Source: Candidatus Latescibacterota bacterium (GTDB lineage: Bacteria > Latescibacterota > UBA2968 > UBA8231). From it: a stretch of DNA of 64,000 nucleotides. Numbering within the stretch: position 1 is the stretch's first letter; each line of letters opens with the position of its first letter. Both the position numbers and the translations under genes were made by a program. Of the stretch, positions 14,333 to 55,598 are shown piece by piece. The stretch spans positions 119,797 to 183,796 of the forward strand of contig JAPYRN010000004.1 in the NCBI GenBank assembly GCA_029941565.1, written 5' to 3'. Under the pieces are notes generated by a model that was given only the letters and a program-made list of their open reading frames with translations, was not told where the DNA came from and searched no databases.

Positions 14333-14346
14333 TTCAGAGCGGGTCG

Positions 14347-14756: not shown

Positions 14757-14835
14757 GGATCCGTCGCCTACCAGTTGCAGATCGCCGGTCCGGTGCGTGA
14801 CGTGTCGGTGGTTGTTGGCGACCTGACGGGCCCTG
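14757..14835 (+). repeat. 72-bp divergent copy (~92% identical) of an internal segment of the 59496..61316 gene
   Basis: Direct comparison: 14763-14834 vs 59694-59765. Encodes VAYQLQIAGPVRDVSVVVGDLTGPA, matching VAYQLQIAGPARDVSVVVGDLTGPA in the distant gene. Homology begins and ends abruptly and a stop codon follows. Confidence 0.6.
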
Positions 14836-15443: not shown

Positions 15444-15454
15444 CTGGAAACTCC

Positions 15455-15500
15455 ATCAAAAAAACCGCATGCTGACAGAAATCGTGTCGGCATTGCGGTT
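15455..15500 (-). terminator. hairpin plus U7 tract (intrinsic-terminator-like) immediately upstream of the cupin RBS
   Basis: Minus strand reads ccgcaatgccgaca-gatttc-tgtcagcatgcgg then ttttttt, then gatggag (RBS), then GTG. Stem of about 12 bp with one mismatch. The U-tract overlaps the stop of small ORF 15456..15677. Confidence 0.4.
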
Positions 15501-15677
15501 GTGCTCAGAGCCCGGAATGTGCCCTGTCAGCCGCCAACCTAGGCCGTTGGAAGTCTCTCGGCAATGCAAGCGGAAGCCCCAACGCTCGATGTGATGTTTG
15601 CCCGGAACTGGATCATCGCCGACAATCTTTTCATCGGCCTCCAGGGGCGTAGTGGCAACTGCCGTCGGGGTTTGCAT
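15456..15677 (-). CDS. hypothetical small protein (73 aa)
   Basis: Strong RBS gaagaggaggacactatATG. Co-oriented and directly upstream of the cupin gene. No recognisable family. Confidence 0.3.
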   Translation of the reverse strand: MQTPTAVATTPLEADEKIVGDDPVPGKHHIERWGFRLHCRETSNGLGWRLTGHIPGSEHNRNADTISVSMRFF

Positions 15678-15709
15678 ATAGTGTCCTCCTCTTCGTGTAG
15701 CATGCAGAC

Positions 15710-24504: not shown

Positions 24505-24547
24505 AGTAAACTGAAGCGCTTCCTGGGTGTCCAATTTAACGCTGTCG

Positions 24548-24576
24548 TTGACAACCGCCACGGAGCACGTTATCGT
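24548..24576 (+). promoter_or_regulatory. sigma70-like promoter TTGACA-N17-TATCGT for the lipoprotein gene
   Basis: TTGACA at 24548-24553 and TATCGT at 24571-24576. AAGGAA RBS 6 nt before GTG 24606. Confidence 0.35.
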
Positions 24577-31572: not shown

Positions 31573-31655
31573 GGTTTTCCCCCCGTAGCGGTTAGTATAT
31601 ATTATGAAACAGTTCCCACACAGACAATCCATTTAGGCCGATTCTGACTTCTCGG

Positions 31656-38753: not shown

Positions 38754-41700
38754 TCAGTATGCCACCGCGATGACCCGCGTGCGAACGGATGACACGTCGG
38801 CATCATCTGCTTCCACTTTCAACCGACAGATATAAAGCCCAGGGGCGACGAGGTCGCCATTGTCATCAATACCAGCCCAGACAATCCCCTCACGACCGAT
38901 TTCCACCGCCTCTGCGCTCTGCCACACGAGGCGCCCATTGAGACTGTAAATCCTAACAACAGCCTGCCTGGGAACAGAAATCTTAAACACGGAAAAAACG
39001 ATCACAGTTTGGTCGTTGATGCCGTCCCCATTGGGGGTGATCGTGCTGGGGACGATTCGAAAATCATTGAGCAGTTGCGTGTCGAGTGGCACACCGATGG
39101 TCAGTGTGTTGGCCGCACTCAACGAGGTCGCATCCCCCGACTCGATATCCTGCCAGAGAGCGTCGGACCGCGTGCCATTGCGACCGTCCCGGACGGCGAT
39201 ACGCAGGGTGGTACCGTTGGTGAATACCGGCGCTTTGAAGCGCGCCACAACCAACGGTCCCGGGCCGCTGATCGTGCCGCGGCTGCTGGTGCGCAGTGCA
39301 TTGTAGCTGCCGGCAGTCAGTGAGTCGCCATCGACGGTGAAGGGAAACTGATCGCCATCACCCAGAAGTAGACGGAAATAACGGATCGGCCCCTGCTCCG
39401 GCTCCGGCAGAGCCAAGTAGGTGGTGGCATCGACCTGATTCAGCGTGATGCGTCCAGTGGTGCTCACGACTTGGCGAAAGTGGCGGACGTCACCCCTTTC
39501 ATTTTCCGGCAGGACACCATAGGAGGCCTGGGTCAGCAACTGACCATCGTGGCTGACCGGTACCAGGTCACCCTCAGAGGTAATGCGGTTGTAGGCCCTG
39601 TCGACATCACCGAGAATATTGAGATTCTCCGGAAGTCTGACCCAGATCGAATCGGAGCCGGTGGCCAGCAACTGTAAGGCCTCACCCGCTTGATCGATAA
39701 ATGGCTCTCCTGGCCCTGTGGGCCGAAATAGTCGCTGTGCAGTGCCGGACTCTGCATCGACACCAACGCCCAGATCGAGAAGTTCCAGGTCCTGCGATGC
39801 CGGCATGCGCAACAGGAGTTCATCGAAGCCGGTGCTGCGCGAAACGATGGGATTCTCGATGAAGTCGGGCTGTACGAAAACCGTGAATGTGTCGATCTGG
39901 CCTGGGTTGGCGATCTGCGCCGGCTCCATTTCCGCCAGGATGGCACCGGCCACCGGTTCGAGCAAGCCGATATTGATGGAGTGAATGGCGGCGGCCATAT
40001 CCTTGTCCTCAGAGGTCATACGAACACGGATCTGCAGGAATTTTTTATGTCCCGGGGAGGTCACACGGTCACCAGGTGTCTGGTATGGTCGACTCCAGGA
40101 ACTCCAGCCAGTGGTCGGTACGAAGCTCGTATCAGCCGGTCCCTTGAAAGTGGAGAACAGGCTGTTCCAATTGCTGAAGGGGATCTCGCTCCCCGACGCG
40201 TCGTAGTATTTGGTGACCTTGCCCAGAACGGAACCGGTACGGGTACTGATCTCCACGTTTGTTCCCGGGGGTACGTCCGCATCCCAGCTGATGCGTCCGG
40301 GGTTGCGTCCCTGGATCTCGACCAGGTCGGACTCCATAGCGACCGCCGCCGGATAACCTCGGGAGTAGAGCATGTATTCGCCGATGATGGGACCCGTATT
40401 GTACCCTCCTCGGCGGCTGGGGCTCGAGGATGTGACGATGGTTTCGATGAAGCGCATTTTCCGGGGTGGATCGAAGGAGTCCATAAGGAACCGATACAGA
40501 GTCAGTCGGTTGTCCTCGCGCTCCAACGGGCTGAGACGTTGCCATTTCAACTCGCCGGTGGCGTCTCGGGCACCGTCTGAGGAGCGCATGATATACCCAT
40601 CGAGAATGTAGTTTGACCCACGACGCGGAAAGACTGCGACCCGGATGGCGTCCATCCACAGGGTGGTTCCCATGTCGATGGTCATCACACCGCGGTCGAC
40701 AACCGGAGACCAGACCAGGTGCTGGAAGTTGGAACTGAAATCAGCATCAAAGGCGGGTGCCGCTGTGAAGTTGCCACCGCTGAGGTGGATGTTGCCACCA
40801 CTCTCGGTCAGCGTCGGGCTCAGATTGTCACCCCAGCCCCAGGCCTCGATATCGGCGAGTCGGGGACGTTCGCGGATGTAAAAGTCCCTTCGGCCCTGCC
40901 GCGCCGGTGGCAGGGCTTCGTAGTCTGCCAGACCTGCCATCGGTTCCTCAAAGCCCAGCTGGTCCTTGCTGAAGTAGACGATGTCACCACGATCTGACGG
41001 GATGATGTCCAGCCACGCCTGCTCCGAGTCAAGCAGTCGACCCCTGCCTCCCTTTGTGTCCGAAACCACGAAGCGGATCGTCTCGACAAGGCGACCTGAC
41101 CAATCCGGACCGGCCAGCGACTGTTGCAGCGGGATGGAAAATGTGAGTTGATCGACATTCGGCGCCTTGGTGCCGTAAACGAGGGTTAACTGAAGTTTTT
41201 CCTCCTCCTGCGAAATGGCCCGCTGGAAGGGAGAGTCGAGAATGCGGAACTGGCGGAAGGGATCGCCCAGAGTAGGATCAACGAAGTGCATGACCAGCGA
41301 GTCCACGGGCACGACCCGACCCAAGTCCACCTCCACCCACCAGTTTTCCACCGGGTCGTCGGGATCGGGCTCCCAGTATGTCGTTGGGTCACCGTCCAGA
41401 ATGTTGGCCGCCGTCGCAGGATTCGATCCCACCCGGCTGATTCCGGGTCGCAGGAGAAAGGAGTAGACCGGGAGTGTCTTTCCCTTCTTCGTCACCGTGA
41501 TGAGGTTGCCCTGCACGTCATACGTGACGGTACTGTCGATGTTCAGGATGCCCGACTGCCCCTTCCTGAGCTTGAAACCAGACAATGGCCGGGTAAATGT
41601 ATCGAGGTCATCGAGCAGATCGTAGCGGTCGCGGGAGAAGTGTGGTTGCAGAGTTCCGCTCGGAGTTACATCCACCGCACTCTTCGGCAGGTTCCAATTG

Positions 41701-41855
41701 TTCCAGTGCGACGCACTTGTGACGGTGATCTGGGTTGTCGTAACCCGGTGCCCGCTCTGGGCCGTCGCTTGGCGCGGCGCTGACAGCATCGCTGCCGTCA
41801 TGACAGCGGGCAGAATCCACGTCAGGGGTCGTACGTAGTCTAACCGAAGTCCCAT
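38754..41855 (-). CDS. very large secreted protein with T9SS type-B C-terminal domain
   Basis: Start at ATG 41855 with AGGAG RBS (six-frame N-terminal extension rejected). Signal peptide. C-terminus ITPNGDGINDQTVIVFSV...PGLYICRLKV. Confidence 0.75.
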   Translation of the reverse strand: MGLRLDYVRPLTWILPAVMTAAMLSAPRQATAQSGHRVTTTQITVTSASHWNNWNLPKSAVDVTPSGTLQPHFSRDRYDLLDDLDTFTRPLSGFKLRKGQSGILNIDSTVTYDVQGNLITVTKKGKTLPVYSFLLRPGISRVGSNPATAANILDGDPTTYWEPDPDDPVENWWVEVDLGRVVPVDSLVMHFVDPTLGDPFRQFRILDSPFQRAISQEEEKLQLTLVYGTKAPNVDQLTFSIPLQQSLAGPDWSGRLVETIRFVVSDTKGGRGRLLDSEQAWLDIIPSDRGDIVYFSKDQLGFEEPMAGLADYEALPPARQGRRDFYIRERPRLADIEAWGWGDNLSPTLTESGGNIHLSGGNFTAAPAFDADFSSNFQHLVWSPVVDRGVMTIDMGTTLWMDAIRVAVFPRRGSNYILDGYIMRSSDGARDATGELKWQRLSPLEREDNRLTLYRFLMDSFDPPRKMRFIETIVTSSSPSRRGGYNTGPIIGEYMLYSRGYPAAVAMESDLVEIQGRNPGRISWDADVPPGTNVEISTRTGSVLGKVTKYYDASGSEIPFSNWNSLFSTFKGPADTSFVPTTGWSSWSRPYQTPGDRVTSPGHKKFLQIRVRMTSEDKDMAAAIHSINIGLLEPVAGAILAEMEPAQIANPGQIDTFTVFVQPDFIENPIVSRSTGFDELLLRMPASQDLELLDLGVGVDAESGTAQRLFRPTGPGEPFIDQAGEALQLLATGSDSIWVRLPENLNILGDVDRAYNRITSEGDLVPVSHDGQLLTQASYGVLPENERGDVRHFRQVVSTTGRITLNQVDATTYLALPEPEQGPIRYFRLLLGDGDQFPFTVDGDSLTAGSYNALRTSSRGTISGPGPLVVARFKAPVFTNGTTLRIAVRDGRNGTRSDALWQDIESGDATSLSAANTLTIGVPLDTQLLNDFRIVPSTITPNGDGINDQTVIVFSVFKISVPRQAVVRIYSLNGRLVWQSAEAVEIGREGIVWAGIDDNGDLVAPGLYICRLKVEADDADVSSVRTRVIAVAY

Positions 41856-41907
41856 GGTCGTCTCCTGCGGATGCGCGAAACGTGCAACACACCGACTGGT
41901 ATCGAGG

Positions 41908-43620
41908 TCATCCTCGCACCAGCGAATCGGGGACCGCCTCAGCCAGGCGGTCCTGGTAAATCTTGATCTGTGAATCATACTTCTGCCGCAACTCCTGCAG
42001 ATACTGTCCAAGCTCCCGCCCTTCCAGCTCATGATGCAGTAAAGCGCGGGCTCTGGTGCCGGCCTCTTCGAAGGGTTCCGGGGCAGCCTCCGTGTGCTCA
42101 AGGACCCGAAAAACGGAATATCCGCCCTCGACCTCAACAGGTCCGTTCCAGGCACCAATTCTGGCGGCCATCACGTTCTGCACCAGAATTGGGTATCGCA
42201 GGGTGTCCTGGCGGTGGAAATGGAATCTGCCCTTGCGAGCAACTGCGTCCGAACGCAGGCTGCGGTCGATGAAGTCCACCACAGTCGCCCCCGCCTGCAA
42301 GCGTCCTCGCAGCGTATCTGCTTCTGCCGACGTCGGCACGAGCAACTCCTCCACGAAGGACGCTTCCCCGTGCTGAAACAAGGCCGGATGTTCGTCGTAG
42401 TATCGGCGCACATCCTCTTCGCCAAGGCTGAATCGTTCGCCCACAACCGTCTTGCGTAGACCTTCCAGGATCAGTTCCTGGCGCTTCTGCGTCTGCAGAC
42501 GCTGGATATCGGGATCTTCGTAGTAACCAGCCGCCAGAGCAGCATGGCGCACGAGAAACGGCACGAGGACGAAGTTGCGCAGGGTCGCAGCGGCGTGGCT
42601 GCTGTCAGTCAGACCGGAGGTGATATTAAAGCGCTCAAGGGTCGACTGCACCTCCCCCAGACTGATGTCGCCCTCCGCCCAGGTGTAAGTTGGTGCCGGG
42701 TCGTCCCGCAGAGTGCGCGGTTCGCGTCTGCGGTAGGCTTCCACCACCTTGTTGAGGGCTGCCCCTTGCAGTTCTACTGCGAAGTTGTTTTCCAGCAGCT
42801 CGTAGTGTGCCGCCGCGATCTGGCCCCGGCGTTGACGATACAATTCGGTCCGGATCGCATCACGGAACTTCGTCAGGGCGACGGGACGATCTTCGGTGAA
42901 GAGCACGACATGCCAGTTGCGCCCTGCCTTCAGTGGTTCCGAGACCTGTCCTAGAGGCAGATCGCGGAACACCTCAGGGGGCACGTGCATACGTGGCGCC
43001 AGATCGAGAGCCATGAAACCAAGCTCACCTGAGGACGCAGAAGAGCGTGGATCGATCGAACGCTCCTTGGCGAGCTCTGCGAAGGCACGGCCGGCGGCCA
43101 GTTCGGCGACGACGGAGTCGATGGCACCACGGCTCGCCGTCAGGATCGCACTGAATTTGCGTTCTCGGTAATACCCCTCGGCCTTGAAGTAGCGGCTGAT
43201 CTCCTCTTCTTCGATGGAGATCTTCGAGCCGAATTCGCGACTGCGGTAGATCGCTGCAACCCGTGCGTCCACGGCGTTGCGCAGGGCGTTGCGGAAAGAC
43301 TGGACCGTATCCAGACGCAGCGTCTCAGCCTCCATCAGCAGCAAGCGCCGGTCGATCAATGCCTGCAGGTGATGGACGCGAGCGTCGTCGTCGCTCTTTT
43401 GCGGGCGCAGACCGGCGGGCAGCTGGGAGATGTAGGCGCGCAGGGAGGCGGAGGAAATCTGGTGTGAGCCGACCTCGGCGACCGGAGGATCTTCGGGGGT
43501 TGTGCCGCAGTTCACCCACAGACCACTCAGAACCAGACACACTATCAATCTACTCTGCAACAGATAACTCCAGATCACCGTGGTTACATTGCCGTCGCTT
43601 TCTAGCCGATGGGGATACAT
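41908..43620 (-). CDS. SurA/PpiD-like peptidyl-prolyl cis-trans isomerase, probable lipoprotein (paralog B)
   Basis: Parvulin motif SGELGFMALDLAPRMHVPPEVF...PLKAGRNWHVVLFTEDRP. Paralog of 20822..22480. Signal ending VNCG. Confidence 0.7.
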   Translation of the reverse strand: MYPHRLESDGNVTTVIWSYLLQSRLIVCLVLSGLWVNCGTTPEDPPVAEVGSHQISSASLRAYISQLPAGLRPQKSDDDARVHHLQALIDRRLLLMEAETLRLDTVQSFRNALRNAVDARVAAIYRSREFGSKISIEEEEISRYFKAEGYYRERKFSAILTASRGAIDSVVAELAAGRAFAELAKERSIDPRSSASSGELGFMALDLAPRMHVPPEVFRDLPLGQVSEPLKAGRNWHVVLFTEDRPVALTKFRDAIRTELYRQRRGQIAAAHYELLENNFAVELQGAALNKVVEAYRRREPRTLRDDPAPTYTWAEGDISLGEVQSTLERFNITSGLTDSSHAAATLRNFVLVPFLVRHAALAAGYYEDPDIQRLQTQKRQELILEGLRKTVVGERFSLGEEDVRRYYDEHPALFQHGEASFVEELLVPTSAEADTLRGRLQAGATVVDFIDRSLRSDAVARKGRFHFHRQDTLRYPILVQNVMAARIGAWNGPVEVEGGYSVFRVLEHTEAAPEPFEEAGTRARALLHHELEGRELGQYLQELRQKYDSQIKIYQDRLAEAVPDSLVRG

Positions 43621-43778: not shown

Positions 43779-45188
43779 ATGAATATCCTCTTTATTCTGA
43801 CGGATCAGTTTCGCTTCGACTGTCTTGGTGCCCTCGGTCATCCGCTGGTTGAAACGCCCAATCTCGACGCTCTGGCATCGACATCGACGCTGTTTTCGCG
43901 CACCTGGTGTGCCACCATGGCCTGCGCTCCGGCGCGCGCTTCATTGTTCACCGGCTATTACGCCGACACCCATGGAATGGGCGGCAACCAGACAACTCTG
44001 GATCCGCCCGATCAGCGGGTACTACCCGAATATCTCGCCGCTGCCGGATACGACACGGCGTTGGTGGGCAAACTCCATCTGAAGCCGATGCAGCGGGATT
44101 TCGGCTTCCGCCACCTGCTGCGCCACGACGCGCCCTACACCAACTACAGCGAAGAGGAGGCACGTGATTCAGCCTACCTGCGCTATCTGGGGGAGACCGC
44201 TTTTCGCCACGACCCCGAGGAGGCGGTCCGGCGCTTTACCGAGGACGAGGCCGCCCAACACACCGACGAACAGCGGTTCATGCTCGGCAGCGGTTTCCTC
44301 GAGGCCGAACATCACGAGGTCAGCTGGGCAGTGCGCGAATCGATTCGATATCTGCGCCACGAACGGCCCACCGACAAGCCCTTCTTTCTCAACTGCTCCT
44401 TCTTTGGCCCCCATCAGCCCTATCTCTGTCCGCCCCCCTGGGATGCCCTCTATCCGGAAGCGGAAATTCCCCTGCCCGCCGACTTCCATTATTCCGTCGA
44501 AGACAAACCGCTGTTTCGCGACTCGGCGCAGATGGAGTGGCTCCAGCGCCGGGACCGCTGGGGCTGGGACGAAGGCACCTACCGCCGGCTTCTGGCCGCC
44601 TATTACGGCTATGTGTCGATGATCGATGACGGTGTCGGGCAGCTCTTGGCCGCTGTACGTGAGGAGGGTCTGTGGGATGACACCCTGATCGTATTCAGTG
44701 CCGACCACGGTGAGTTCGGGGGCCAGTTCCGCGCCTTCTACAAGGGGCTGCCCTACGAAGGCTCCTGCCATGTGCCCCTCATCGTACACGATCCCCGGGC
44801 TCCGTCGGGTGGCAGACGCTGTGATCGCAACACGAGCAACATCGATCTGTTTTCCACCTTTTTGCAGGTAGCGGGGGTGGCCCTCCCTGAGCACGTCGAG
44901 TCGCGTGACCTGGCAGCGCTGGTCGCCGGTGAGGAAACGGCGTGGGACAACCGGTCCCTGTGGAAAAAGGGAGGGCAATCTTTCCTTGTCCGCGACGACG
45001 ACAAGCTGGTGCGTGGCGAGGTCGGCACAGAGACGGTCTACGAACTCTACGACCTTGGCCGGGACCCCATGGAGGAACACAACGTCTTCGCCGAACCAGC
45101 GCGACAGCAGAGGCTTGTCGCCCTCCGCGCCGAACTGGACGCCTGGCACGCCGAACAACTGGACAAGAGACGGGGAAGACGAGGATGA
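43779..45188 (+). CDS. sulfatase (arylsulfatase family, Cys-type formylglycine motif)
   Basis: MNILFILTDQFRFD. FGly motif CAPARAS. LVGKLHL. 470 aa. RBS AAGAAGG upstream. Confidence 0.85.
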   Translation: MNILFILTDQFRFDCLGALGHPLVETPNLDALASTSTLFSRTWCATMACAPARASLFTGYYADTHGMGGNQTTLDPPDQRVLPEYLAAAGYDTALVGKLHLKPMQRDFGFRHLLRHDAPYTNYSEEEARDSAYLRYLGETAFRHDPEEAVRRFTEDEAAQHTDEQRFMLGSGFLEAEHHEVSWAVRESIRYLRHERPTDKPFFLNCSFFGPHQPYLCPPPWDALYPEAEIPLPADFHYSVEDKPLFRDSAQMEWLQRRDRWGWDEGTYRRLLAAYYGYVSMIDDGVGQLLAAVREEGLWDDTLIVFSADHGEFGGQFRAFYKGLPYEGSCHVPLIVHDPRAPSGGRRCDRNTSNIDLFSTFLQVAGVALPEHVESRDLAALVAGEETAWDNRSLWKKGGQSFLVRDDDKLVRGEVGTETVYELYDLGRDPMEEHNVFAEPARQQRLVALRAELDAWHAEQLDKRRGRRG

Positions 45189-45207
45189 AACGTCGCATGG
45201 CAGGCGA

Positions 45208-47199
45208 ATGAAGCATGCGATCCCCAAGCTGTATCGAATCTATCTCGAACGACGGGGCCTGACCCAGGCCGACGTCGGGCACGGTTCAACGATTACCATC
45301 CGTGGTCTGTTTGTGGGTGGTGTCATGTGCGTCGCTATCGCCCTGGGCGCCCCTTACACGACCATGCTGCTGCGTGGTACACCGATGGGCTTTTCGTCGG
45401 TCACGCCTGCCGCCTTCTTCCTGTTGTTTCTACTGCTGATCTGTCAGGTGATGTGGAAATTGTGCTGTAAGGATGAGGGTCGAGGGCTCACGCGCGGCGA
45501 GCTGATCACGATAACGGTGATGATGATGGTCGCCGCCGCGATTCCCACCCGCGGCGTAACGGGCATGCTGCTGCCCATGATCACCGGCATCCACTACTAC
45601 GCCTCCGCAGAAAACAGGTGGGCGCAGCTGCTCCATCCGCACCTGGCGGATTGGACCCTGGTCGATGATCCACAGGCGGTGGCGGGCTTCTACGAAGGGG
45701 GTGTCAGCGCCATCCCATGGGGTGGTTGGGTGCCGGCCTTGCTCGGATGGCTGCTGTTCTACGCCGCCTTCTATCTGACGTTGGTGTCGTTGTTGGCCAT
45801 CCTGCGTCGGCAATGGGTGGAACATGAACGCTTGCCCTTTCCCCTGGCCAGCGTACCCCTCGAGTTGTTCCGCGAAGGGGAGAATGTTGGGCCTCTGCCA
45901 GCTGTGCTGCAGAAGCCCAGCATGTGGGTGGGTTTTGCCCTGCCGATGCTCGTGGGCAGTCTGCAGGGCCTGCAGCACTACTTCGTGCAGGTTCCCACGC
46001 TCTCGCTCTCCACCCAGATGACGCTCTCGACAGGCGTCGTACTGCGTGTGGGTGTCAATTTTCTGATGCTGGGTTTTGCCTATTTCATCAATACCAGCAT
46101 CGCCTTCAGTCTGTGGGTTTTCTACCTGCTCATCGTACTGGAAAAACGAGTGCTCGAGGTCATGGGGGTAACCACGGTAAAAGCTGACCTGGGTCAGTGG
46201 ACGGAGCCCATCCTGGGTCACCAATCGATGGGGGCGCTGATCGTTCTGGTCGTCTCTGGCTGCTGGGTTGCGCGCAGCCACCTCAAGAGCGTCTGGCGCA
46301 AGGCCATCGGCAGCGATCCATTGATCGACGATGGCCAGGAGATCATGTCCTATCGCAGCGCTGTGATCGGTGTGGGTTGCGGTGTGATCGGTATGTCGGT
46401 CTGGCTCTGGCAGGCGGGGGTACCCTGGTGGATCGCGCCACTGTTCGTGTTTGGCGCGCTGGTGATTTTCACCGGCCTGACACGGGCCATCGCCGAAGGT
46501 GGAATTCCGACGATCTCGCCCGCCATGGTGCCGGCGGGGTTCGTGATCTCCACCGTCGGCGTACCGGCATTGGGCGTGGCGGGGGTCATCGCCACCGGAC
46601 ATACGTTGATCTGGAGTGGCGAGATGCTGGTCTTCATGATGGCGCCCCTGGCCACCGGCATGCGCCTCGGCAGCGAGATCACGGGCCATCGTCGCCGGCT
46701 GCTCTGGGCGATCGCTGCCGCCATGCTGATCACACTGGTGGTCTCCGTCTGGTTCACGTTGTATCTGGCCTATCACCACGGGGGCGTGAACCTCAGCAGG
46801 CAGTTCTTTCGCACCTTTCCAACCTATCCCGCCACCTTCGCCATACAGCAGCTGGAAAATGCCATGGGTCCGAGTCTCAGCGGTGGACTCTGGATGTTGG
46901 CTGGCGGCGTCATGATGATGTTGCTGATGGTCGCCCGTCATCATTTCGTCGGATGGCCACTGCACCCGCTAGGTTTCGCCGTGGCGCCGGGTTGGACGAT
47001 GAATGTGCTTTGGTCATCGATACTGTTGGCGTGGCTGATCAAACGCCTCGTGCTGCGTTTCGGTGGTGCCGGGACCTACGAACGGACCAAACCCTTTTTT
47101 CTGGGTCTGGTCATGGGACAGCTGGTGGTGGGGGGTGTTTGGCTCGTCATCGACAGCATGACCGGCACCGTAGGCAATGTCATCCCGGTTTTCTATTGA
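45208..47199 (+). CDS. large polytopic membrane protein of unknown family (paralog B)
   Basis: Start at ATG 45208, 19 nt after the sulfatase stop. Paralog of 22489..24504. The 44905 six-frame extension overlaps the sulfatase gene and is rejected. Confidence 0.7.
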   Translation: MKHAIPKLYRIYLERRGLTQADVGHGSTITIRGLFVGGVMCVAIALGAPYTTMLLRGTPMGFSSVTPAAFFLLFLLLICQVMWKLCCKDEGRGLTRGELITITVMMMVAAAIPTRGVTGMLLPMITGIHYYASAENRWAQLLHPHLADWTLVDDPQAVAGFYEGGVSAIPWGGWVPALLGWLLFYAAFYLTLVSLLAILRRQWVEHERLPFPLASVPLELFREGENVGPLPAVLQKPSMWVGFALPMLVGSLQGLQHYFVQVPTLSLSTQMTLSTGVVLRVGVNFLMLGFAYFINTSIAFSLWVFYLLIVLEKRVLEVMGVTTVKADLGQWTEPILGHQSMGALIVLVVSGCWVARSHLKSVWRKAIGSDPLIDDGQEIMSYRSAVIGVGCGVIGMSVWLWQAGVPWWIAPLFVFGALVIFTGLTRAIAEGGIPTISPAMVPAGFVISTVGVPALGVAGVIATGHTLIWSGEMLVFMMAPLATGMRLGSEITGHRRRLLWAIAAAMLITLVVSVWFTLYLAYHHGGVNLSRQFFRTFPTYPATFAIQQLENAMGPSLSGGLWMLAGGVMMMLLMVARHHFVGWPLHPLGFAVAPGWTMNVLWSSILLAWLIKRLVLRFGGAGTYERTKPFFLGLVMGQLVVGGVWLVIDSMTGTVGNVIPVFY

Positions 47200-47207: not shown

Positions 47208-48422
47208 ATGATCAGATCTCTGCGACCTGTCACCACATGGTTGTATCTGGCTCTCGGTATACCGGCTTGTGGCGCAGTTGAAGACAACGGCTCTGCCACG
47301 TCGACGGTGCTCGTCGTGACCCCAGGCGAAGGGGAGTCCTTTCGCGCCGCCGTGGCGGCAGCTGGACCGGGAGATCGGATCGCTGTACCACCGGGTGAGT
47401 ATGGCAATGGTCATTTCTTTCCGGGTCTGAAGGGTGAACCCGGACAGCCTATCGTCATCCTCGCCGCCGATCCTGACGAGCCACCGACATTTACCGGCGG
47501 CGTCGAGGGTATGCACCTCATAGAACCCGAGTATGTGGAGTTGCACAACCTGCATTTCAGCGGCCAGAGCGGCAATGGTCTGAACATCGATGATGGTGGC
47601 GACTTTGAGCAGCCGGCGCGGCACGTCGTTCTGCAGGGGCTCGAGGTGCGCGACATCGGACCGGATGGCAACCACGATGGCATCAAGCTGTCGGGGCTCA
47701 CCGACTTCCGCATCGAGGGTTGCACCATCGAGCGCTGGGGCCGAGGCGGTTCCGGAATCGACCTGGTGGGCTGTCACCGCGGCCAGATCACGAGGTCCAC
47801 CTTCCGCCATGGTGACAGCGCCGGCAGCAGTGGCATTCAGATCAAAGGCGGCAGTGCCGACATCCTCGTGCGGCAGAACCGTTTTGAGCATAGTGGTCGC
47901 CGCGCGGTGAACATCGGTGGCAGTACGGGTCTGGAGTTCTTTCGACCCGCACCATATGCCGGCTACGAGGCGACTCGAGTTATGGTGGAGGGCAACCTGT
48001 TCATCGGTTCGCAGGCGCCCGTCGCTTTTGTCAGCGCCGACGGCTCCACCTTTCGCTACAACACGCTGTATCGACCGGTGGACTGGGTGCTGCGTATCCT
48101 GCAGGAGAACAAGACGGAGAACTTCATTCCCTGTCGTGCCGGTGTCGTGACGGACAATCTCGTGCTGTTCCGTGCCGACGAGCTGAGCACTTTCGTCAAC
48201 ATCGGACCGGACACGGCGCCCGAGACATTTCGTTTCGAGCGCAACTTCTGGTTTGCGATCGATGACCCCAGCGCCAGCACACCAGAGCTTCCCGTAGCCG
48301 AAATCGACGGCATCGTCGGCGTCCCGCCTCTGCTCAAAGACCCGGAAGCCGGGGACTTCAGTCTCACCGCCGACAGTCCCCCATCGGTGCGTGCCGTCGG
48401 CGCTCATGCCCTCTTGGAATAG
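47208..48422 (+). CDS. right-handed parallel beta-helix repeat protein (pectate-lyase-fold), probable lipoprotein
   Basis: ATG 47208, 8 nt after the upstream stop, RBS GAGAGGG. Signal ALGIPACG. Repeated beta-helix rungs (NGLNIDDGG, HDGIKLSG, GSGIDLVG, SSGIQIKGG, AVNIGGS). Confidence 0.6.
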   Translation: MIRSLRPVTTWLYLALGIPACGAVEDNGSATSTVLVVTPGEGESFRAAVAAAGPGDRIAVPPGEYGNGHFFPGLKGEPGQPIVILAADPDEPPTFTGGVEGMHLIEPEYVELHNLHFSGQSGNGLNIDDGGDFEQPARHVVLQGLEVRDIGPDGNHDGIKLSGLTDFRIEGCTIERWGRGGSGIDLVGCHRGQITRSTFRHGDSAGSSGIQIKGGSADILVRQNRFEHSGRRAVNIGGSTGLEFFRPAPYAGYEATRVMVEGNLFIGSQAPVAFVSADGSTFRYNTLYRPVDWVLRILQENKTENFIPCRAGVVTDNLVLFRADELSTFVNIGPDTAPETFRFERNFWFAIDDPSASTPELPVAEIDGIVGVPPLLKDPEAGDFSLTADSPPSVRAVGAHALLE

Positions 48423-50355
48423 GCCCCCGACGCCATTCGTGTCGTTGGCGTTTTTCGCTGTCGCCACCACGATCGCGTTGGCGACACCCGCTGCGGGGCA
48501 GATCGGCGGTACGGTAACCGATCGGGAGTCCGGTCAGCCCCTGGCAGGCGCTCTGGTCTCCGTGCAGGCGCAACCGATTCGCACTCAAACCGATCATCAG
48601 GGAGAATTTCTGCTCGCCGTCGATGGCGACGACCTCATCATCGTCGCCGCACACAAGGGCTACTTCAATGGCCGACGAATTCTGTCCTCGCCGACTGCCG
48701 CAGCCGGCATCGAGTTAGATCGCGTGTCCGTCGGCGATGAACCCAACTATGATTTTGTCCGACCTGGCGCCTGCGGCGCCTGCCATCCAAACCAACTGAG
48801 CCAGTGGCGTAATTCCCCCATGGCCCGGACAGGCAACAACCCTTGGGTCTATGACCTCTTCAGTGGGGACGGCACGGCGGGCGGCCAGGCCGGATTCGTC
48901 TACAGGCGCGATTCCCGCCTGGTGCAGAGCGACCCGGCCTCCGAGTGTGCTTCCTGTCACCAACCGGAACAGTGGGTGCAACAACCCGGAGCCAGCCTGG
49001 ACGCTGTCGGCGCCCTGTCGGAGGGGGCACTGCACGGCGTCTCCTGTGACATCTGCCACAAGATTGCTCACATCGACGAGGGCATGACGGACTACCCTGG
49101 TATTTCCGCAGGGGTCACCTTCACGCGCCCCGAACGATTCGGCGATCAGGTGCAGTATGGCGTATTGGGCGATAGTAGCTACGACGAGTTTCGCGACGTG
49201 ATGCGAGCCTCGTACCAACCGCAGTTGACTGCCGCCATGTGCGCCGCCTGTCATCAACACCGATCCCATCCCGGTGAGCGGGATGGGATCGCCAACCAGT
49301 TCACCTACATGGAATGGCGCGACTCCCCCTACAGCGACCGCAACTCACCGTACTTTGCCACATGCGTCGACTGTCATATGCCTTCATATGGCGCCACGGA
49401 GGTCTGCGGTTTCCCCGGGTATCTGCCACCGACGCGGGACAGCGAGACGATTCGTGGCCACACCATCGAGGGCACGACACCACACTTTCTGGAGAATGCG
49501 GTCTCTCTATGGATCGATGCGCGCATCGAGCAGGATCTACTGGTGGCCGAGGTCACGGTGAGCAACGACAAGACCGGTCATCATGTTCCAGATGGCACCA
49601 TGCGTAACATGATCCTGCTCGTCGAAGCCCGACGCCTCGAGCCGGACGCCCAGCTGCAATATCAGGGGACCCAACAGGTACACGAGTTGGGAGGTGTCGG
49701 CGACCCGGCGCAGGGGTATTTCGCCGGTCTGCCCGGCAAGTTCTTCGGCCGCGTCATCCACGACGAACTGGGCGACGCTCCCGTGCCCTTCACCGAGGCG
49801 ACCGGGGTGTTGTGGGACAATCGCATTGCCGCCCTCGCCGAGGATCGCTCCAGCTACAGCTTCGTGTTGCCTGCCGGGGAGGGTTCGTACGCAGTCACCG
49901 CCCGTCTTATCTACCGCCGTGCCTTTCGTTTTCTGGTGGACGAAAAGGGCTGGACGCAGGACGGACAGGGCCGGCCCCTAGAGGATCTGCAGCCGCCCTA
50001 TTTCGGGCACTTAATGGAACAAGCGACATGGACCTCGGAGCCGGTCACGGCGGTCTCACGAACCGACGTTCTGCCACACGTTTTCCGCCTGCAGGCAAAC
50101 TATCCAAATCCATTCAATGCCGCCACGAGGATCAACTATGAGCTGCCCCGGGACGCGATGGTGATCCTGCAGGTCTTCGATGTGCTCGGCCGAGAGGTGA
50201 AGACACTTGTGCGCGGCTACCGAGCCGCCGGAGGTTGGTCGGTGGCCTGGGATGGTACCGATCAACGTGGCCATCCCGTGAGCTCGGGGCTGTTTCTGTA
50301 TCAGCTACGGGCGGGAGGGCTTGAAGAGACGCGCAAGATGTTGCTGCTGCCATAA
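48406..50355 (+). CDS. pentaheme c-type cytochrome with N-terminal carboxypeptidase-regulatory-like domain and T9SS type-A C-terminal domain
   Basis: Five CxxCH motifs (CGACH, CASCH, CDICH, CAACH, CVDCH). N-terminal GTVTDRESGQPLAGALVSV (CarbopepD_reg-like). C-terminus NYPNPFNAATRINYEL...GLFLYQLRAG. Start overlaps the beta-helix gene end by about 17 nt. Confidence 0.75.
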   Translation: MPSWNRPPTPFVSLAFFAVATTIALATPAAGQIGGTVTDRESGQPLAGALVSVQAQPIRTQTDHQGEFLLAVDGDDLIIVAAHKGYFNGRRILSSPTAAAGIELDRVSVGDEPNYDFVRPGACGACHPNQLSQWRNSPMARTGNNPWVYDLFSGDGTAGGQAGFVYRRDSRLVQSDPASECASCHQPEQWVQQPGASLDAVGALSEGALHGVSCDICHKIAHIDEGMTDYPGISAGVTFTRPERFGDQVQYGVLGDSSYDEFRDVMRASYQPQLTAAMCAACHQHRSHPGERDGIANQFTYMEWRDSPYSDRNSPYFATCVDCHMPSYGATEVCGFPGYLPPTRDSETIRGHTIEGTTPHFLENAVSLWIDARIEQDLLVAEVTVSNDKTGHHVPDGTMRNMILLVEARRLEPDAQLQYQGTQQVHELGGVGDPAQGYFAGLPGKFFGRVIHDELGDAPVPFTEATGVLWDNRIAALAEDRSSYSFVLPAGEGSYAVTARLIYRRAFRFLVDEKGWTQDGQGRPLEDLQPPYFGHLMEQATWTSEPVTAVSRTDVLPHVFRLQANYPNPFNAATRINYELPRDAMVILQVFDVLGREVKTLVRGYRAAGGWSVAWDGTDQRGHPVSSGLFLYQLRAGGLEETRKMLLLP

Positions 50356-50389: not shown

Positions 50390-51566
50390 ATGACCACACG
50401 AACCAGCCGTCTGTCGTTGCACGTCCTGTTCTGGGTGGGGCTGTCGTTGCCCCCCATTCATGCCAGTGACTATCAAGTCAGATTCATCCCCTTTGAGGAT
50501 CTCAAACCGGATGGGGCCAGACTCACCGTCTGCTGGGCAGGTATCGGCATCGATCACAACCAGCGTGTGTACTTCGCTGCCAGTGACGAGAACGACAGTC
50601 GACCGGATGACACCGTCATTTTTCGTTATGACACAAAGACCGAAACCCGGCAGCTGCTGGGCACCTTGCGGGGCATCAGCGAGGCGCAAAAACCTGGCCC
50701 CCCAAGAGAGCATCGGCAAGATTCACGTCTCCTTCATGGAGCATCGGGGCAAGATGTATTTTCCCTCGCACGACTACCATGATATCGAGCGCGACTACAG
50801 CGACATGTATGATCGACGAGGGGGGCACTTCTACGCTTTCGATCTCAAGAACGAGAGCTTTGAGGATCTGAGCCGGACCGACAACTTCGGTGTCTCCGTG
50901 CCATACCAGGGCATCATCGCCATGGATATCCTGCATTCGCAGAACAAGCTGGCGGGTTTCACCTTTCCCATGGGTGACATCCTCATCTACGACCTGAAGA
51001 CGCGCAGAACCACTTTCCACCCCGGGGTACCCGAGTATCGCATGCGCAACGTGGCGCGGGAGATCTGGGCAACCAAGAAGGGCAAGGTCTACTTCACCTA
51101 CGCCGAATCAGACTTCTGGCTCTGGGAGCTGGACGTCAAGACGGGTGTCATGCGTCGAACCGAACAGCGTAACGTCGTCAGCCACAGTTTTCTGCATGGC
51201 AGGTCGCTACCGCGGACGGCAAAACCGTCTGTCTGACCGACAACGATGGCCATCTGTTCGCCTTCGACAACGAGCGGGAGAGCCTACGCGATCTGGGACT
51301 GCTGTTACCGAACGACGAGATTACCGCTGGACGTGAGATCCACTTCGTCAACGGTCTCGCCCTGTCGAAAGATGAGCGCAGCCTGTACAGCCTCCCCTGC
51401 AAATTCAAGGGCGGTGGCAGCCCGGCGCTGTATGCGTACAACACCAAGACCTGAGAGAAAACGCCATCTGGCCAGCTTCCAGCAGTTGGATGGCGGTACC
51501 GTGACGGGCAATGCCGTCATCGACGATGCCGGGCGTCTCTACTATGGATACCACGAGTACAACTGA
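50390..51566 (+). pseudogene. secreted beta-propeller-like protein gene disrupted by at least three frameshifts
   Basis: Coding signal continues across four frames: 50390-~50700 (signal peptide MTTRTSRLSLHVLFWVGLSL...), ~50700-51236, ~51175-51452 (…TDNDGHLFAFDNERE…), and 51453-51566 (…DDAGRLYYGYHEYN). First switch coincides with a C6 homopolymer at 50695-50700. Confidence 0.5.
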
Positions 51567-51677: not shown

Positions 51678-54600
51678 GTGCAATTCATGAAAATGATGAG
51701 ATGGATCCTGTTCGTATTGCTGCTATCGACGATGAGTTCGTCGGCGCAGAACCTGCCCGACTACACCTGTGTGAGGGCCACGCAACCACTGGTAATCGAT
51801 GGCATCGCCGACGAATCCGCCTGGGCGTTGGCGGCGCCGATGGCGTTGGTGGATGTGCTTTCTATCGACGATCCCGTAGCCCACACCCGTCCCACGGAAG
51901 TGCGCATGCTCTGGGACGACGACAATCTATACGTGTTGTTTGTCGCCACCGATCCCGATGTCTGGTCAAATCTGTCCCAACGCGACGACCCGCTGTGGAA
52001 TGAAGAGGTCGTCGAGATTTTTTTCGATCCCACGGGGCAGGGCCAGAAGTATGGCGAGATCGAAGTCAACTCCCTCAACACCATCGTCGATCTGCTCGTG
52101 ACCCGAACGCCGGAACGGGCGTCGTTTTTCGAGTGGAGTCCCGACTTCGAGTCTGCCGTCTCGGTGGAGGGATCACGAAATGATCCTGCAGACGAAGACC
52201 GACGCTGGGTGATGGAAATCGCCATCCCCTGGGTAGCGTTGCGATCCGACCTGCTCGATATCGCCGGCAGTCAATCCCTGCCACCAGCCGAAGGGGACGT
52301 GTGGCGCTTTAACTTCTATCGGTATGAGCGTCTGCGCGAGGACGGCGTGGAGACCGAAATCGAGTACAGCGCCTGGTCACCGACGGGGGAGATCAACTTC
52401 CATATGCCGGAGCGTTTCGGCCGCGTCGTTTTCCGAGCGGCGCAGACGGCGGATGACCTCTATCCTGCCGGCTCGCTGGTGCCAACTTTTGATCTGGGAC
52501 TGCAACCGGTTGAGATCACCGTACCCGACAAGTTCAAGAATGATGTGGCGGAGGGTCTCACGCTCAACCTGCCCCCCGGTTTTTCAGCCAGTGTCTTCAC
52601 CGCTGGTCGTATGGTGAGACCGAGATTCATGGCTTTCAACGACGACGGTGTCATGCACCTGGCCGACATGAATCAGCGCGTCGTCATCGCCTTACCCGAT
52701 CGCGACAACGACGGTGTCGCCGATAGCCATATCATCGCCGCCGAGGACTTCCGTTACAATCACAGTCTCGCCTTTTACAAGGGGGATCTCTACGTCGCGG
52801 ATACGCACCAGGTGCTGCGCATGATCGATAGCGACGGCGATCTCGTCTACGAAGACCGTGAGGTGTTTATCGACAACATTCCGTCAGAGGCGTGGCACAC
52901 AACGCGCACCATCGTCTTCGACGAACGCAACGAAAAGATCTACATCGGCGTCGGTTCTCCCTGCGATCTGTGTCGACCGCAGTCACCGGTCGCCGGCGGC
53001 AGCAGCGATGCCGTGGAGCCCAATCCAGAGTGGACGAGCATCCTCGAATTCAACACCGACGGCACGGGGCGACGGATCTTCGCAACAGGAATTCGCAATG
53101 CCGTCGGACTGACCCTGCATCCCATCACCAACGAGCTGTGGGGGGACCACAATGGCCACGATATGGAAGGCCGGGCCAAACCAGCCGAGTGGATCGATAT
53201 CATCCGGGATGGCGACTTTCTGGGGTACCCCTTCGTCCACGGACACCAGATCTGGAATGATTTCAGCATTCCCCGTTATCAGCGCATGTTGCCCATCACC
53301 GCGGCGGACAGTCTGCTGGCGGCGCGGCAGAAACGACCGGTCGCCCAGGTGCCCGCCCATTATGCCCCCATGGGACTGCACTTCTATACGCACCAGCAGT
53401 TCCCAGAACGGTATATGAACCAAGCCTTTGTCGCCTTCCGCGCCGGTCAGGCGAAGCTCTCCTCCCATCCGGGTTACATGGTGGCCGCCCTGTTCAGCGA
53501 GCCAGATGGTTCCAATGCGCGCATGGCACCTTTCATCACCGGATTCCAGGCCGGCACAACGCAGGATGATGTCTGGGGTTTTCCCGTGGGCTTGATGACG
53601 GATGATGAGGGCAGTCTTTACGTGTCCTCCGATGCACGCAATCGCATGGTCCTCAAGATCACGCACAGCCCACTGAGTGGTTCCTGGGAGCACGATCTAC
53701 CCAAGACGGCTGACGTCGGCAGTTCTCTGGACCTGTCACTTACCGTGCATGTGGAACGCGTTGCCGAGGAGGGTGGTCCCGCCCGGGTCCGGGCGGACCT
53801 GAGCGAGCTGGGTGGACCCGCGGACGTGCTGCTGGAGCGTGTGGATGAGCAGACCTTCCGCCTTGACACCCAGCTCGAGCTCGACGTGCCGAGTGGTGTC
53901 TACCGCCTGCGGGCTTTCATCGAGCAGCCGCAAGGGGAGACCCCACTGTCGGTCCAGTTGTCGACGAGTATCGCCATTCTTCCCCGAGGGGATTTTATCC
54001 TGCTCGACGACGAGATCGCCGAGGGTTGGCAGACGATTAACAGCAGCGGTGCGCGGCCCCTCCGGCTCACCACCGGAGAGCCGGTCCGTACCGGTGCCGC
54101 CGCTGCCGCGATAGAAGTCGTGTCCACGGCTACGCCATGGGAGGCGTCGTTGCTGCCACAAGCACCCTTTGCCCCGGCGGGTCTGGCATCACTCTACTTC
54201 TCATTCCATCCCGGTGATCTCGATGCGACATTGGACGGGGATGGGCAGCTGTCGGTTGAGATCAACGGTAGCAGCGTCGATCTGGCGGAGTACATCGATC
54301 TGTCGTCGCGTCGCTGGCAGGACATTGAGATTCCCTTGTCGGCCTTCGATCTGCGCAGCGATCCGGTGGAGAAGATCCTTTTCACCGGTGATCTGTCTGG
54401 CACCTTCTATCTCGACGATGTGCGCTTCCGTCTGGCCCGGGACAGGTCGCCGATCAATGCCCTCTGGGAACACGACCTGGTCGATGCTGTCACCGAAGGC
54501 AACGGCCTCGATGTGGTCGCTATGGTGCACGTAACCCGCGCCGATCCTGGTGCTACTGTGCGGGTCATCGCCGATCTGAGTGGTCTGGGCGGGCCCGAGG

Positions 54601-55598
54601 CCTTGTTGTTGACCCAACTCGATGACGACAGCTACGGCCTCGACACCGATCTGAACCTGAGGGGGATACCGAATGGTGTGTATCGCATCTCGGTGCGTGT
54701 CGAACAGCTGACGCCGAGTGGTCGCCAGTGGATACGATTGGCGCACATCATCACCGTGTTGCCCCAGGATCTAGGAATTCTCGACGAGGGCCTGGCGGCG
54801 GGTTGGCAGCTGAACGGAGAACGTGGCGCCAATGTGCTCGGGGCGACGATGGACGGCCCCGTTTATAATGGTGAGGAGGCGCTGATGATCAGCGTCAAAC
54901 CGGAGAACTTCTTTACCAATTGGTCCGTCGAACTCAGGCCTCCGGAAACGATCGGACGCCTCGGTTTCGCCGGGTTCCGTTTCGCCTTTCATCCCGGCGA
55001 CACCAAGGCGCCGGCCGTGCCGTTAATGGTCTTGTACATCGGCGAACGATCCGTCGACTTGCTGCGCCCGGATCGCCCATTCATCAATCCGGAGCAGCGG
55101 TCGTGGCAGGTGGTGGAGGTCCCCTTCGAGGCTTTTGAGCAGCAGGCGAGTGTGTACACAGACGGTCTCGTCCTGCTGGTCGAAGATATCTCCTCGATCC
55201 GCCTGGAGGGCAACCTGAGTGGTACCGCTTATCTCGACGATGTGCGACTGGTGACGGGGATCCCGTCGGCACCACCGACGCAGACCGCGGTACTCGAGAC
55301 CGAGGATGAGGTGACGCCCAAAGAGTTCGCTCTCGGACCCAGTTATCCGAATCCGTTCAACGCCGAAACCGTGATCCGCCTCGTCGTGCCTCACGCAGGT
55401 CTGGCAAGATTGTCGGTATACAACCTGGCCGGTCAGCGAGTCGTCGATCTGTTGCATGACCAGTTGCGTGCGGGACCACACGAAGTACGCTGGGATGGTC
55501 GTGATGGCTCAGGCGGTATGCTGGCGTCGGGTGTCTACATGGTGCGCCTCTCCATCGGCCGTCTGGTAGCCTCCGAAAAGGTTCTGCTGCTGCAATAA
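51678..55598 (+). CDS. multidomain secreted PQQ-type glucose/sorbosone dehydrogenase-family protein: CBM9-like + GSDH beta-propeller + 2x CBM4_9-like modules + T9SS type-A C-terminal domain
   Basis: Signal peptide. CBM9-like N-domain (VIDGIADESAW...LWDDDNLYVLF). GSDH signatures (GIRNAVGLTLHP...ELWGDHNGHDMEG...FLGYPF). Tandem ~270-aa modules each ending GTFYLDDVRF / GTAYLDDVRLV. C-terminus YPNPFNAETVIRLV...GVYMVRLS. Confidence 0.8.
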   Translation: MQFMKMMRWILFVLLLSTMSSSAQNLPDYTCVRATQPLVIDGIADESAWALAAPMALVDVLSIDDPVAHTRPTEVRMLWDDDNLYVLFVATDPDVWSNLSQRDDPLWNEEVVEIFFDPTGQGQKYGEIEVNSLNTIVDLLVTRTPERASFFEWSPDFESAVSVEGSRNDPADEDRRWVMEIAIPWVALRSDLLDIAGSQSLPPAEGDVWRFNFYRYERLREDGVETEIEYSAWSPTGEINFHMPERFGRVVFRAAQTADDLYPAGSLVPTFDLGLQPVEITVPDKFKNDVAEGLTLNLPPGFSASVFTAGRMVRPRFMAFNDDGVMHLADMNQRVVIALPDRDNDGVADSHIIAAEDFRYNHSLAFYKGDLYVADTHQVLRMIDSDGDLVYEDREVFIDNIPSEAWHTTRTIVFDERNEKIYIGVGSPCDLCRPQSPVAGGSSDAVEPNPEWTSILEFNTDGTGRRIFATGIRNAVGLTLHPITNELWGDHNGHDMEGRAKPAEWIDIIRDGDFLGYPFVHGHQIWNDFSIPRYQRMLPITAADSLLAARQKRPVAQVPAHYAPMGLHFYTHQQFPERYMNQAFVAFRAGQAKLSSHPGYMVAALFSEPDGSNARMAPFITGFQAGTTQDDVWGFPVGLMTDDEGSLYVSSDARNRMVLKITHSPLSGSWEHDLPKTADVGSSLDLSLTVHVERVAEEGGPARVRADLSELGGPADVLLERVDEQTFRLDTQLELDVPSGVYRLRAFIEQPQGETPLSVQLSTSIAILPRGDFILLDDEIAEGWQTINSSGARPLRLTTGEPVRTGAAAAAIEVVSTATPWEASLLPQAPFAPAGLASLYFSFHPGDLDATLDGDGQLSVEINGSSVDLAEYIDLSSRRWQDIEIPLSAFDLRSDPVEKILFTGDLSGTFYLDDVRFRLARDRSPINALWEHDLVDAVTEGNGLDVVAMVHVTRADPGATVRVIADLSGLGGPEALLLTQLDDDSYGLDTDLNLRGIPNGVYRISVRVEQLTPSGRQWIRLAHIITVLPQDLGILDEGLAAGWQLNGERGANVLGATMDGPVYNGEEALMISVKPENFFTNWSVELRPPETIGRLGFAGFRFAFHPGDTKAPAVPLMVLYIGERSVDLLRPDRPFINPEQRSWQVVEVPFEAFEQQASVYTDGLVLLVEDISSIRLEGNLSGTAYLDDVRLVTGIPSAPPTQTAVLETEDEVTPKEFALGPSYPNPFNAETVIRLVVPHAGLARLSVYNLAGQRVVDLLHDQLRAGPHEVRWDGRDGSGGMLASGVYMVRLSIGRLVASEKVLLLQ

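Follow-up and report, generated by a model that had tools for sequence, protein, structure and literature searches.

A pentaheme c-type cytochrome with a type IX secretion-type C-terminal domain encoded in a Latescibacterota genome

Cargoes described so far for the type IX system of secretion (T9SS) are mainly hydrolases, adhesins and motility proteins, and the known surface multiheme cytochromes leave through the type II pathway, in lipoprotein form or within porins. MtrC and OmcA of Shewanella are ten-heme lipoproteins that type II secretion exports and that dock on MtrAB. Here we describe a gene at positions 48406–50355 of a 64-kb stretch of DNA (the window) from contig JAPYRN010000004.1 of a Latescibacterota bacterium, a member of a phylum of the Fibrobacterota–Chlorobiota–Bacteroidota (FCB) group. 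The gene encodes a 649-residue pentaheme c-type cytochrome that ends in a T9SS-type C-terminal domain (CTD). The original prediction, made from the sequence, had read the product as a heme-loaded T9SS cargo and as a possible component of extracellular electron transfer (EET).

Among described pentaheme cytochromes, c552 of Thermochromatium tepidum is represented by PDB entry 5ZE8, and the only paper that discusses its function describes that function as unknown. A 2025 preprint presents MccSep (ExtKL, GSU2937-2936) of Geobacter sulfurreducens as a periplasmic homotetrameric polysulfide reductase, a pentaheme selenoprotein built from a five-heme cap and an immunoglobulin-like (Ig-like) stem, in which Cys239 ligates heme 2 and the catalytic Sec325 reaches in from the Ig-like domain. 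PtdA, a c552-type pentaheme protein with a C-terminal β-sandwich that is encoded in the ptdABCDEFG cluster of the marine Alphaproteobacteria UBA11136, has been proposed to be part of a porin–cytochrome complex. In the literature on T9SS CTDs, a cargo consists of an N-terminal signal peptide and a terminal Ig-like CTD, which matches the architecture described here. A T9SS review names several non-Bacteroidota FCB phyla as possible holders of the system, Latescibacterota being unnamed there; we found no paper on T9SS in Latescibacterota in the searchable literature, and the genome papers on Caldithrix, Melioribacter and Latescibacteria are silent on T9SS-tailed cytochromes or on the T9SS question. 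The fold, the CTD and the N-terminal domain of our protein are each known; their combination, a multiheme c-type cytochrome as a T9SS-type cargo, is found in no searchable paper. Public annotations name the members of the family only by their tail or as hypothetical.

Pentaheme domain and core fold

Read from its ATG to its stop codon, the gene is open, and public assemblies call a protein identical to its product on a contig of 203 kb. The protein contains exactly five CxxCH motifs (CGACH at residue 123, CASCH at 181, CDICH at 214, CAACH at 279 and CVDCH at 320) and, besides the cysteines of these motifs, a single further one, Cys334, which is 75% conserved. Shuffling of the protein sequence (20 000 shuffles) yields a mean of 0.005 such motifs with a maximum of one, and none is present in the other plausible genes of the window. 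All five are invariant across 121 homologs; together with the shuffles, this bears out the five motifs of the original prediction as those of a real cytochrome. Also invariant in these homologs are Met139, Lys219 (immediately after the heme 3 motif), Met266, Met325, His352 and His392, with His393 conserved at 93%. In the alignment, Met139 occupies the position of a histidine in MccSep (His74) and c552, which suggests a His/Met-ligated heme; the cytochrome probably holds at least one heme of this type.

On the basis of structure modelling, the gene product shares the c552/MccSep fold, in which an α-helical cap with five hemes sits on a stem formed by an Ig-like β-sandwich. The core was modelled on its own from a 116-sequence alignment, with a mean predicted local distance difference test score (pLDDT) of 91 and a predicted template-modelling score (pTM) of 0.90, and its only full-length structural match in Foldseek is 5ZE8 (E = 5.3e-18, with TMq of 0.61 and TMt of 0.71). 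In an earlier full-length model the heme domain was poor (pLDDT <50), yet it already pointed to 5ZE8. A PDB sequence search with the single protein returned nothing significant for the core. The family profile matches the 5ZE8 sequence with an E value of 3.8e-4, covering the region of hemes 1–3 and the G-H-x-x-P-x-G...R-N loop that opens the β-sandwich. The best NCBIfam match of the core is the ExtKL/MccSep model NF040886 (E = 7e-9), with a score of 34.7 bits, which is under the cutoff of 250. Short matches to Pfam cytochrome families comprise domain II/IV of MtrC/MtrF (PF22113; 32.8 bits versus a gathering score of 30), which spans some 50 residues around hemes 4–5, and Cytochrome_C554 (27.4 bits versus 20.8).

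The resemblance to MccSep does not extend to its catalytic residues. The MccSep sequence used for alignment was taken from the supplement of the 2025 preprint. With the family hidden Markov model (HMM), Sec325 aligns with the residue after Gly397, a position that is held by valine in the family and deleted in this copy. Aligned by eye with the sequence as published, Cys239 lies close to the family's invariant Gly294, and Cys334, the sole non-heme cysteine, sits away from the catalytic positions of MccSep. Since both Cys239 and Sec325 are absent, we reject a polysulfide reductase function of the MccSep type. The deletion itself (residues 397–398, nucleotides 49594–49599) is shared with the closest relative, P0001; both proteins are one residue short in the GHHVPxG[V]T loop, precisely at the position of the MccSep selenocysteine.

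Terminal domains and the exchange of tails within the family

The N-terminus shows the hydrophobic core and the A-x-A-like site preceding Gln32 that are expected of a signal peptide, and these features are kept in the homologs. The predicted +1 residue is a glutamine in 59 of the 63 CTD-bearing members versus 29 of the 55 members without a CTD (Gln32 column of the family alignment, window positions 48499–48501), a pattern that resembles the Gln+1 rule of Bacteroidota signal-peptidase substrates and lends support to a location at the surface. The mature protein would begin with a β-sandwich that passes the Pfam threshold for the CarboxypepD_reg-like family PF13715 (residues 33–87; 33.4 bits versus a gathering score of 32.2) and superposes on the N-terminal extension of SusC and the transthyretin-like domain of carboxypeptidase D (Foldseek 9hfj and 5aq0; TMt 0.82–0.83), so that the carboxypeptidase-regulatory-like N-domain that had been proposed for this protein is confirmed.

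Judged by sequence comparison, the tail probably belongs at the family level to the T9SS type-A CTD class. It lies at the extreme C-terminus and is modelled as a compact all-β sandwich (pLDDT ∼90). Residues 574–634 pass the Pfam threshold for FlgD_ig (33.9 bits versus a gathering score of 27), and the tail is 35–37% identical (E values of 1e-19 to 1e-20) to the tails of two other proteins of the window, encoded at 15710–17785 and 51678–55598, which pass the T9SS type-A model TIGR04183 with 33.8 and 33.2 bits, respectively. Among 65 orthologous tail-bearing cytochromes, 45 match TIGR04183 with E ≤ 6e-5, approximately the cutoff score, the best at 5e-12, and several orthologs are named 'T9SS type A sorting domain-containing protein' by NCBI. 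An HMM of the family tail recognizes this domain in five further proteins of the window, which makes six tailed proteins in the 64 kb: those at 15710–17785 and 51678–55598 are type-A-like, and those at 29449–31632, 31656–33764 and 38754–42158 are CHU_C/type-B-like. The tail matches the CTD portion of the PorU model with an E value of 1.2e-6, and its Foldseek matches to the Ig domains of PorU and FlgD are poor at the TM level. Tail-only tblastn matches fall in Cytophagia, Rhodothermales, Ignavibacteria, Cloacimonadota, Calditrichota, Latescibacterota, Gemmatimonadota and other FCB lineages. This genome scan picked up no more than the tail pattern 'QANYPNPF'; its 66 matches are to the CTD alone, none of them with the cytochrome core.

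The cytochrome family is large, with more than 800 homologs in a word-indexed search, the top 120 of which all have E < 1e-166 and are ∼45–75% identical. An exhaustive search of 50%-identity representatives returned 169 clusters at E ≤ 1e-30. Of the 88 full-length representatives that contain four or more CxxCH motifs, 74 have exactly five and only seven end in a CTD, so that those with the CTD form one clade within a wider pentaheme family. Of the 121 closest sequences, 65 have the CTD, and Gemmatimonadota, Latescibacteria and Eisenbacteria appear in the names of these 65. The remaining 56, with names that include Planctomycetes and Deltaproteobacteria, end in dockerin-like repeats, Cys-rich repeats, a recurrent module of ∼143 residues, a hydrophobic-plus-basic segment like those of PEP-CTERM and MYXO-CTERM, or no tail at all. 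The core stays ∼50% identical across phyla while the tail changes by lineage. A conserved core combined with lineage-specific sorting or anchoring modules points to action at or beyond the outer membrane and is our best comparative argument; the pattern of tail exchange in these sequences argues for a surface or extracellular location.

Gene neighbourhoods, export and competing roles

Together with the architecture, the family-level type-A CTD makes a T9SS cargo that is loaded with heme in the periplasm the most economical reading of the gene, and we hold it with slightly more belief than doubt. The signal peptide would carry the apoprotein to the periplasm by the Sec route, where the hemes would be attached covalently by established cytochrome c biogenesis. 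The folded holoprotein would then be recognized through its CTD and cross the outer membrane by the type IX system, which would leave the cytochrome on, or release it from, the surface of the probably marine Latescibacterota cell. There, the five-heme chain could act as an extracytoplasmic redox module, whose likeliest partners would be further oxidoreductases, either secreted or at the surface, or an extracellular acceptor.

Table 1. Positions of the cytochrome gene, its parts and two neighbouring genes in the window
Feature	Position (nucleotides)	Strand	Basis or remark
Whole gene: 649-residue pentaheme c-type cytochrome with T9SS-type C-terminal domain	48406..50355	+	Open reading frame, homologs
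Predicted Sec signal peptide, residues 1–31, predicted cleavage before Gln32, no lipobox Cys	48406..48498	+	Read from sequence
Carboxypeptidase-regulatory-like (transthyretin-like) β-sandwich, residues 32–105	48499..48720	+	PF13715, Foldseek
Pentaheme domain, residues 115–360	48748..49485	+	CxxCH motifs, homolog conservation
CxxCH motifs	48772–48786, 48946–48960, 49045–49059, 49240–49254, 49363–49377	+	Motif positions
Ig-like β-sandwich 'stem', residues 361–545	49486..50040	+	Core model, 5ZE8 match
Conserved GHHVPxG loop of stem	49576–49608	+	Alignment with MccSep Sec325 loop
C-terminal sorting domain, residues 561–649, T9SS type-A-like, NYPNPFN start, KMLLLP end	50086..50352	+	FlgD_ig, TIGR04183, window-tail identity, orthologs
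Right-handed β-helix protein gene, upstream	47208..48422	+	Stop overlaps cytochrome start by 17 nucleotides
Secreted CBM9/DOMON-like + DUF7133/GSDH-type β-propeller protein, 1306 residues, no CxxCH	51678..55598	+	TIGR04183-positive tail

The overlap between the β-helix gene and the cytochrome gene (Table 1) makes co-transcription of the two possible; no σ70-like promoter was detected, and terminator-like sites occur only at chance level. The window context is one of glycan-degradation genes, which encode a sulfatase, a DUF6785/6784 membrane protein, β-helix, PcRGLX-like and GH123-like proteins and the CBM9 + DUF7133/GSDH protein. The last of these is a candidate redox partner of the cytochrome. 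It consists of a CBM9/DOMON-like domain, a DUF7133/GSDH β-propeller, two repeated modules of ∼200 residues and the CTD. Its propeller matches the N-domain of the 'PVC-type heme-binding CxxCH proteins' (TIGR02604; 49 bits, below the cutoff), and its CBM9-like domain has EB_dh/DOMON relatives that bind heme b. Between this gene and the cytochrome gene, directly downstream of the latter, lies a gene for a signal-peptide-bearing β-propeller-like protein of ∼390 residues (50390–51566, plus strand) that is broken by three or more frameshifts, including one at an A5/C6 homopolymer (∼50687–50706), the flanking genes for the proteins of 649 and 1306 residues being intact; it is either a decaying pseudogene or the site of local assembly errors. 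The open reading frames at 50460–51236 and 51246–51566 were considered as partners and rejected, since both are pieces of this single frameshifted gene, of which none of the fetched loci has a homolog.

A comparison of 12 neighbourhoods revealed no conserved operon. GSDH/DUF7133 propeller genes are found near the cytochrome gene in three of them (the window, L070 and L071). In L070 and L071 they directly flank it and encode lipoproteins whose lipobox cysteine is followed by an acidic stretch that resembles the surface-lipoprotein export signal of Bacteroidota. A NapH/MauN-like membrane ferredoxin gene is directly downstream in two neighbourhoods (L069 and L073), Rrf2, hemerythrin or ScdA genes are nearby in three, and a type II DMSO-reductase cluster and a glucose–methanol–choline (GMC) oxidoreductase gene are present in one each. 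The propellers and the NapH/MauN-like proteins are hints of possible partners. In L068 (P0019) and L072 (P0012), the cytochrome gene is surrounded by swarms of at least five genes of the URO-D family (MtaA/CmuA-like methyltransferases or decarboxylases). L069 also encodes, at 13491–15710 on the minus strand, a β-propeller + CCP/MauG-like di-heme protein that is similar to hydrazine synthase γ and has the same kind of T9SS-like tail. Its gene clusters with the NapH-like gene, with a hemerythrin/ScdA gene and with that of a further multiheme cytochrome. A second class of heme c protein thus bears this tag, in support of a surface location.

Several observations weigh against export by T9SS and a redox role at the surface. 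The tail of this copy scores just below the TIGR04183 cutoff (20.3 bits, E = 4e-4, cutoff 23) and below that of PF18962 (13.6 bits, cutoff 27); the type-A tail of the original prediction stands as the same domain as the passing tails of the window and of the orthologs, and narrowly fails the strict TIGR04183 check. No T9SS component gene (GldK/L/M/N, SprA/Sov, PorU or PorV) was found in the window or in an extra 10 kb upstream in L077, a syntenic sibling contig (assembly GCA_029935935.1); the architecture and the family-level CTD speak for a T9SS-sorted, heme-loaded cargo and the lack of a machinery gene in these regions speaks against it. L077 does carry a secretin gene (801 residues; 6203–8608, ∼4 kb upstream of gltB and just beyond the window), which indicates that the organism also has an outer-membrane channel for type II secretion or type IV pili, and the cytochrome may take a type II route. 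Both of the characterized or crystallized relatives, MccSep and c552, are soluble or periplasmic, and the His/Met ligation proposed above is read from alignments only. The NapH-like inner-membrane neighbour of two CTD-bearing homologs fits a periplasmic electron path better than one at the surface. Although the L070 and L071 GSDH genes are mutual orthologs, their identity to the GSDH-type domain in the window is only 25–29%. With neighbourhoods so heterogeneous, any partner is a guess.

The cytochrome could instead be a periplasmic enzyme or carrier like MccSep or c552, possibly for nitrogen oxides or sulfur species, with a tail that is structural, serves in binding or is removed without surface display. 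The periplasmic or soluble nature of the nearest fold relatives favours such a role, as do the NapH/MauN-like genes directly downstream in two homolog loci, the Rrf2, hemerythrin/ScdA and Crp genes or the type II DMSO-reductase cluster that adjoin other homologs, and the many invariant polar residues of the core, including Lys219 and His393, which are what an active site would show. Against it, the tail is always terminal, starts with PNPF and ends in K/R-x-L-L-L as type-A CTDs typically do, and relatives swap it for other recognized sorting or anchoring modules; the absence of both MccSep catalytic residues also detracts from an enzyme of that kind. We regard a periplasmic role as unlikely.

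The view of the original prediction, that the protein is an outer-surface terminal reductase or conduit element for EET to minerals or electrodes, similar to MtrC/OmcA and exported by T9SS, appears doubtful. A chain of several hemes, together with a signal for sorting to the surface, would suit this function, the PF22113 match involves an MtrC/MtrF domain and the c552-type PtdA has been placed in a porin–cytochrome complex. However, no electron route across the outer membrane was identified: porin–cytochrome, decaheme or other multiheme genes are absent from the window, and porin–cytochrome complex genes of the MtrAB or Ptd type are likewise absent from the 11 homolog neighbourhoods with Pfam labels. 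The OmcA/MtrC model TIGR03507 scores 27.7 bits versus a cutoff of 209, and membership in that family is rejected by heme number, by this score and by fold. The closest relatives have the c552/MccSep fold and are not outer-surface metal reductases, one characterized member being a periplasmic enzyme, and many neighbourhoods are devoted to polysaccharide degradation rather than respiration. The ∼50% identity of the core across phyla also counts against this role, such a value being unusually high for surface electron-transfer cytochromes. As the window offers neither a conduit nor a further multiheme gene nor a respiratory setting, and the 12 neighbourhoods share no conserved operon, a metal-reducing EET role is without direct support.

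Rather improbable, finally, is a function as extracellular redox partner of secreted carbohydrate dehydrogenases (of the GSDH/pyrroloquinoline quinone or GMC type), a counterpart of the cytochrome domains in fungal cellobiose and pyranose dehydrogenases that would pass electrons on to oxygen, metals or oxidative polysaccharide-cleaving enzymes. The window is rich in glycan-degrading genes, and its GSDH-type protein has a passing T9SS tail and resembles a propeller that is fused to a CxxCH domain in PVC bacteria, while itself lacking CxxCH; GSDH/DUF7133 genes adjoin the cytochrome gene in three of the 12 neighbourhoods, with a GMC oxidoreductase near a fourth, and the L070/L071 propellers are lipoproteins with the export-like acidic stretch. 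This link is nevertheless confined to a minority of neighbourhoods, related lineages account for two of the three GSDH cases, the GSDH domain in the window is a distant paralog of the other two and no lytic polysaccharide monooxygenase gene was seen.

Several other genes of the window merit description. The three large proteins with CHU_C/type-B-like T9SS tails ('PNPFTPNGDGINDE') are encoded on the minus (29449–31632 and 38754–42158) and plus (31656–33764) strands. Just downstream of one of these genes, at 36061–38733 on the minus strand, is the gene for an 890-residue signal-peptide protein with no Pfam or NCBIfam match, which might be an outer-membrane partner; no PorP/SprF-like gene was recognized. 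The DUF6785 + DUF6784 membrane protein has two paralogs in the window (22489–24561, minus strand, and 44905–47199, plus strand), and its family recurs near cytochrome homologs in the P0001 and L071 loci, always amid glycan-degrading genes. An 824-residue protein encoded at 18341–20815 on the minus strand has both an MFS-like membrane domain and a spermine/spermidine synthase domain. The window's glutamate synthase shares a 90%-identity cluster with proteins of metagenome-assembled genomes labelled Latescibacteria and with a Tara Oceans member.

If the cytochrome is indeed a T9SS cargo, a cofactor-loaded redox protein would join the list of proteins secreted by this system, and uncultured polysaccharide-degrading lineages of marine and sediment habitats would gain a possible means of extracellular redox chemistry. 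The broader proposal that non-Bacteroidota FCB bacteria (Latescibacterota, Gemmatimonadota, Eisenbacteria and relatives) display a heme-loaded pentaheme cytochrome through T9SS, as a new extracellular redox route, is a long shot. Were it true, it would amount to a T9SS-based form of EET or to a bacterial analogue of the fungal dehydrogenase–cytochrome systems; in the fungal-like version, surface oxidation of sugars by GSDH/pyrroloquinoline quinone-type enzymes would be coupled to extracellular acceptors during polysaccharide degradation.

Comparison with known systems

Like the T9SS type-A cargoes RgpB, HBP35 and PorU of Porphyromonas gingivalis (Bacteroidota), the cytochrome has a signal peptide and a terminal Ig-like β-sandwich CTD of ∼80–90 residues. 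Its tail differs from theirs in being a longer, FlgD_ig-like variant that is common in non-Bacteroidota FCB phyla, and the known cargoes are proteases, glycanases, adhesins and similar proteins, whereas the one described here is a pentaheme cytochrome. With MtrC/OmcA it shares the multiheme c-type character and the short PF22113 match around hemes 4–5, and surface display, which is proposed here; it differs from them in having five hemes, no lipobox and a different fold (no Foldseek match). PtdA, compared by description, is likewise a c552-type pentaheme protein with a β-sandwich, comes from marine bacteria and is proposed to act beyond the cytoplasmic membrane, but its gene adjoins those of a porin and of tetraheme and decaheme proteins, while our gene is without such neighbours and its product carries a T9SS-type tail.

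The comparison is closest with c552 and MccSep. In the c552 of T. tepidum, five CxxCH motifs in the same order precede an Ig-like β-sandwich. The identity is only 17–19%, and c552 lacks both the N-terminal transthyretin-like domain and the C-terminal sorting domain, and has a histidine at the position of Met139 and an alanine at that of His393. MccSep shows the same cap-and-stem design, and the family HMM aligns with its heme 1 region and the 'TN..GH..P.G' loop, but it is a periplasmic homotetramer without a sorting tail. The family described here adds a branch to the recently defined c552/MccSep fold, with Met139, Lys219 and His393 as its own invariant residues, which suggest a different heme chemistry.

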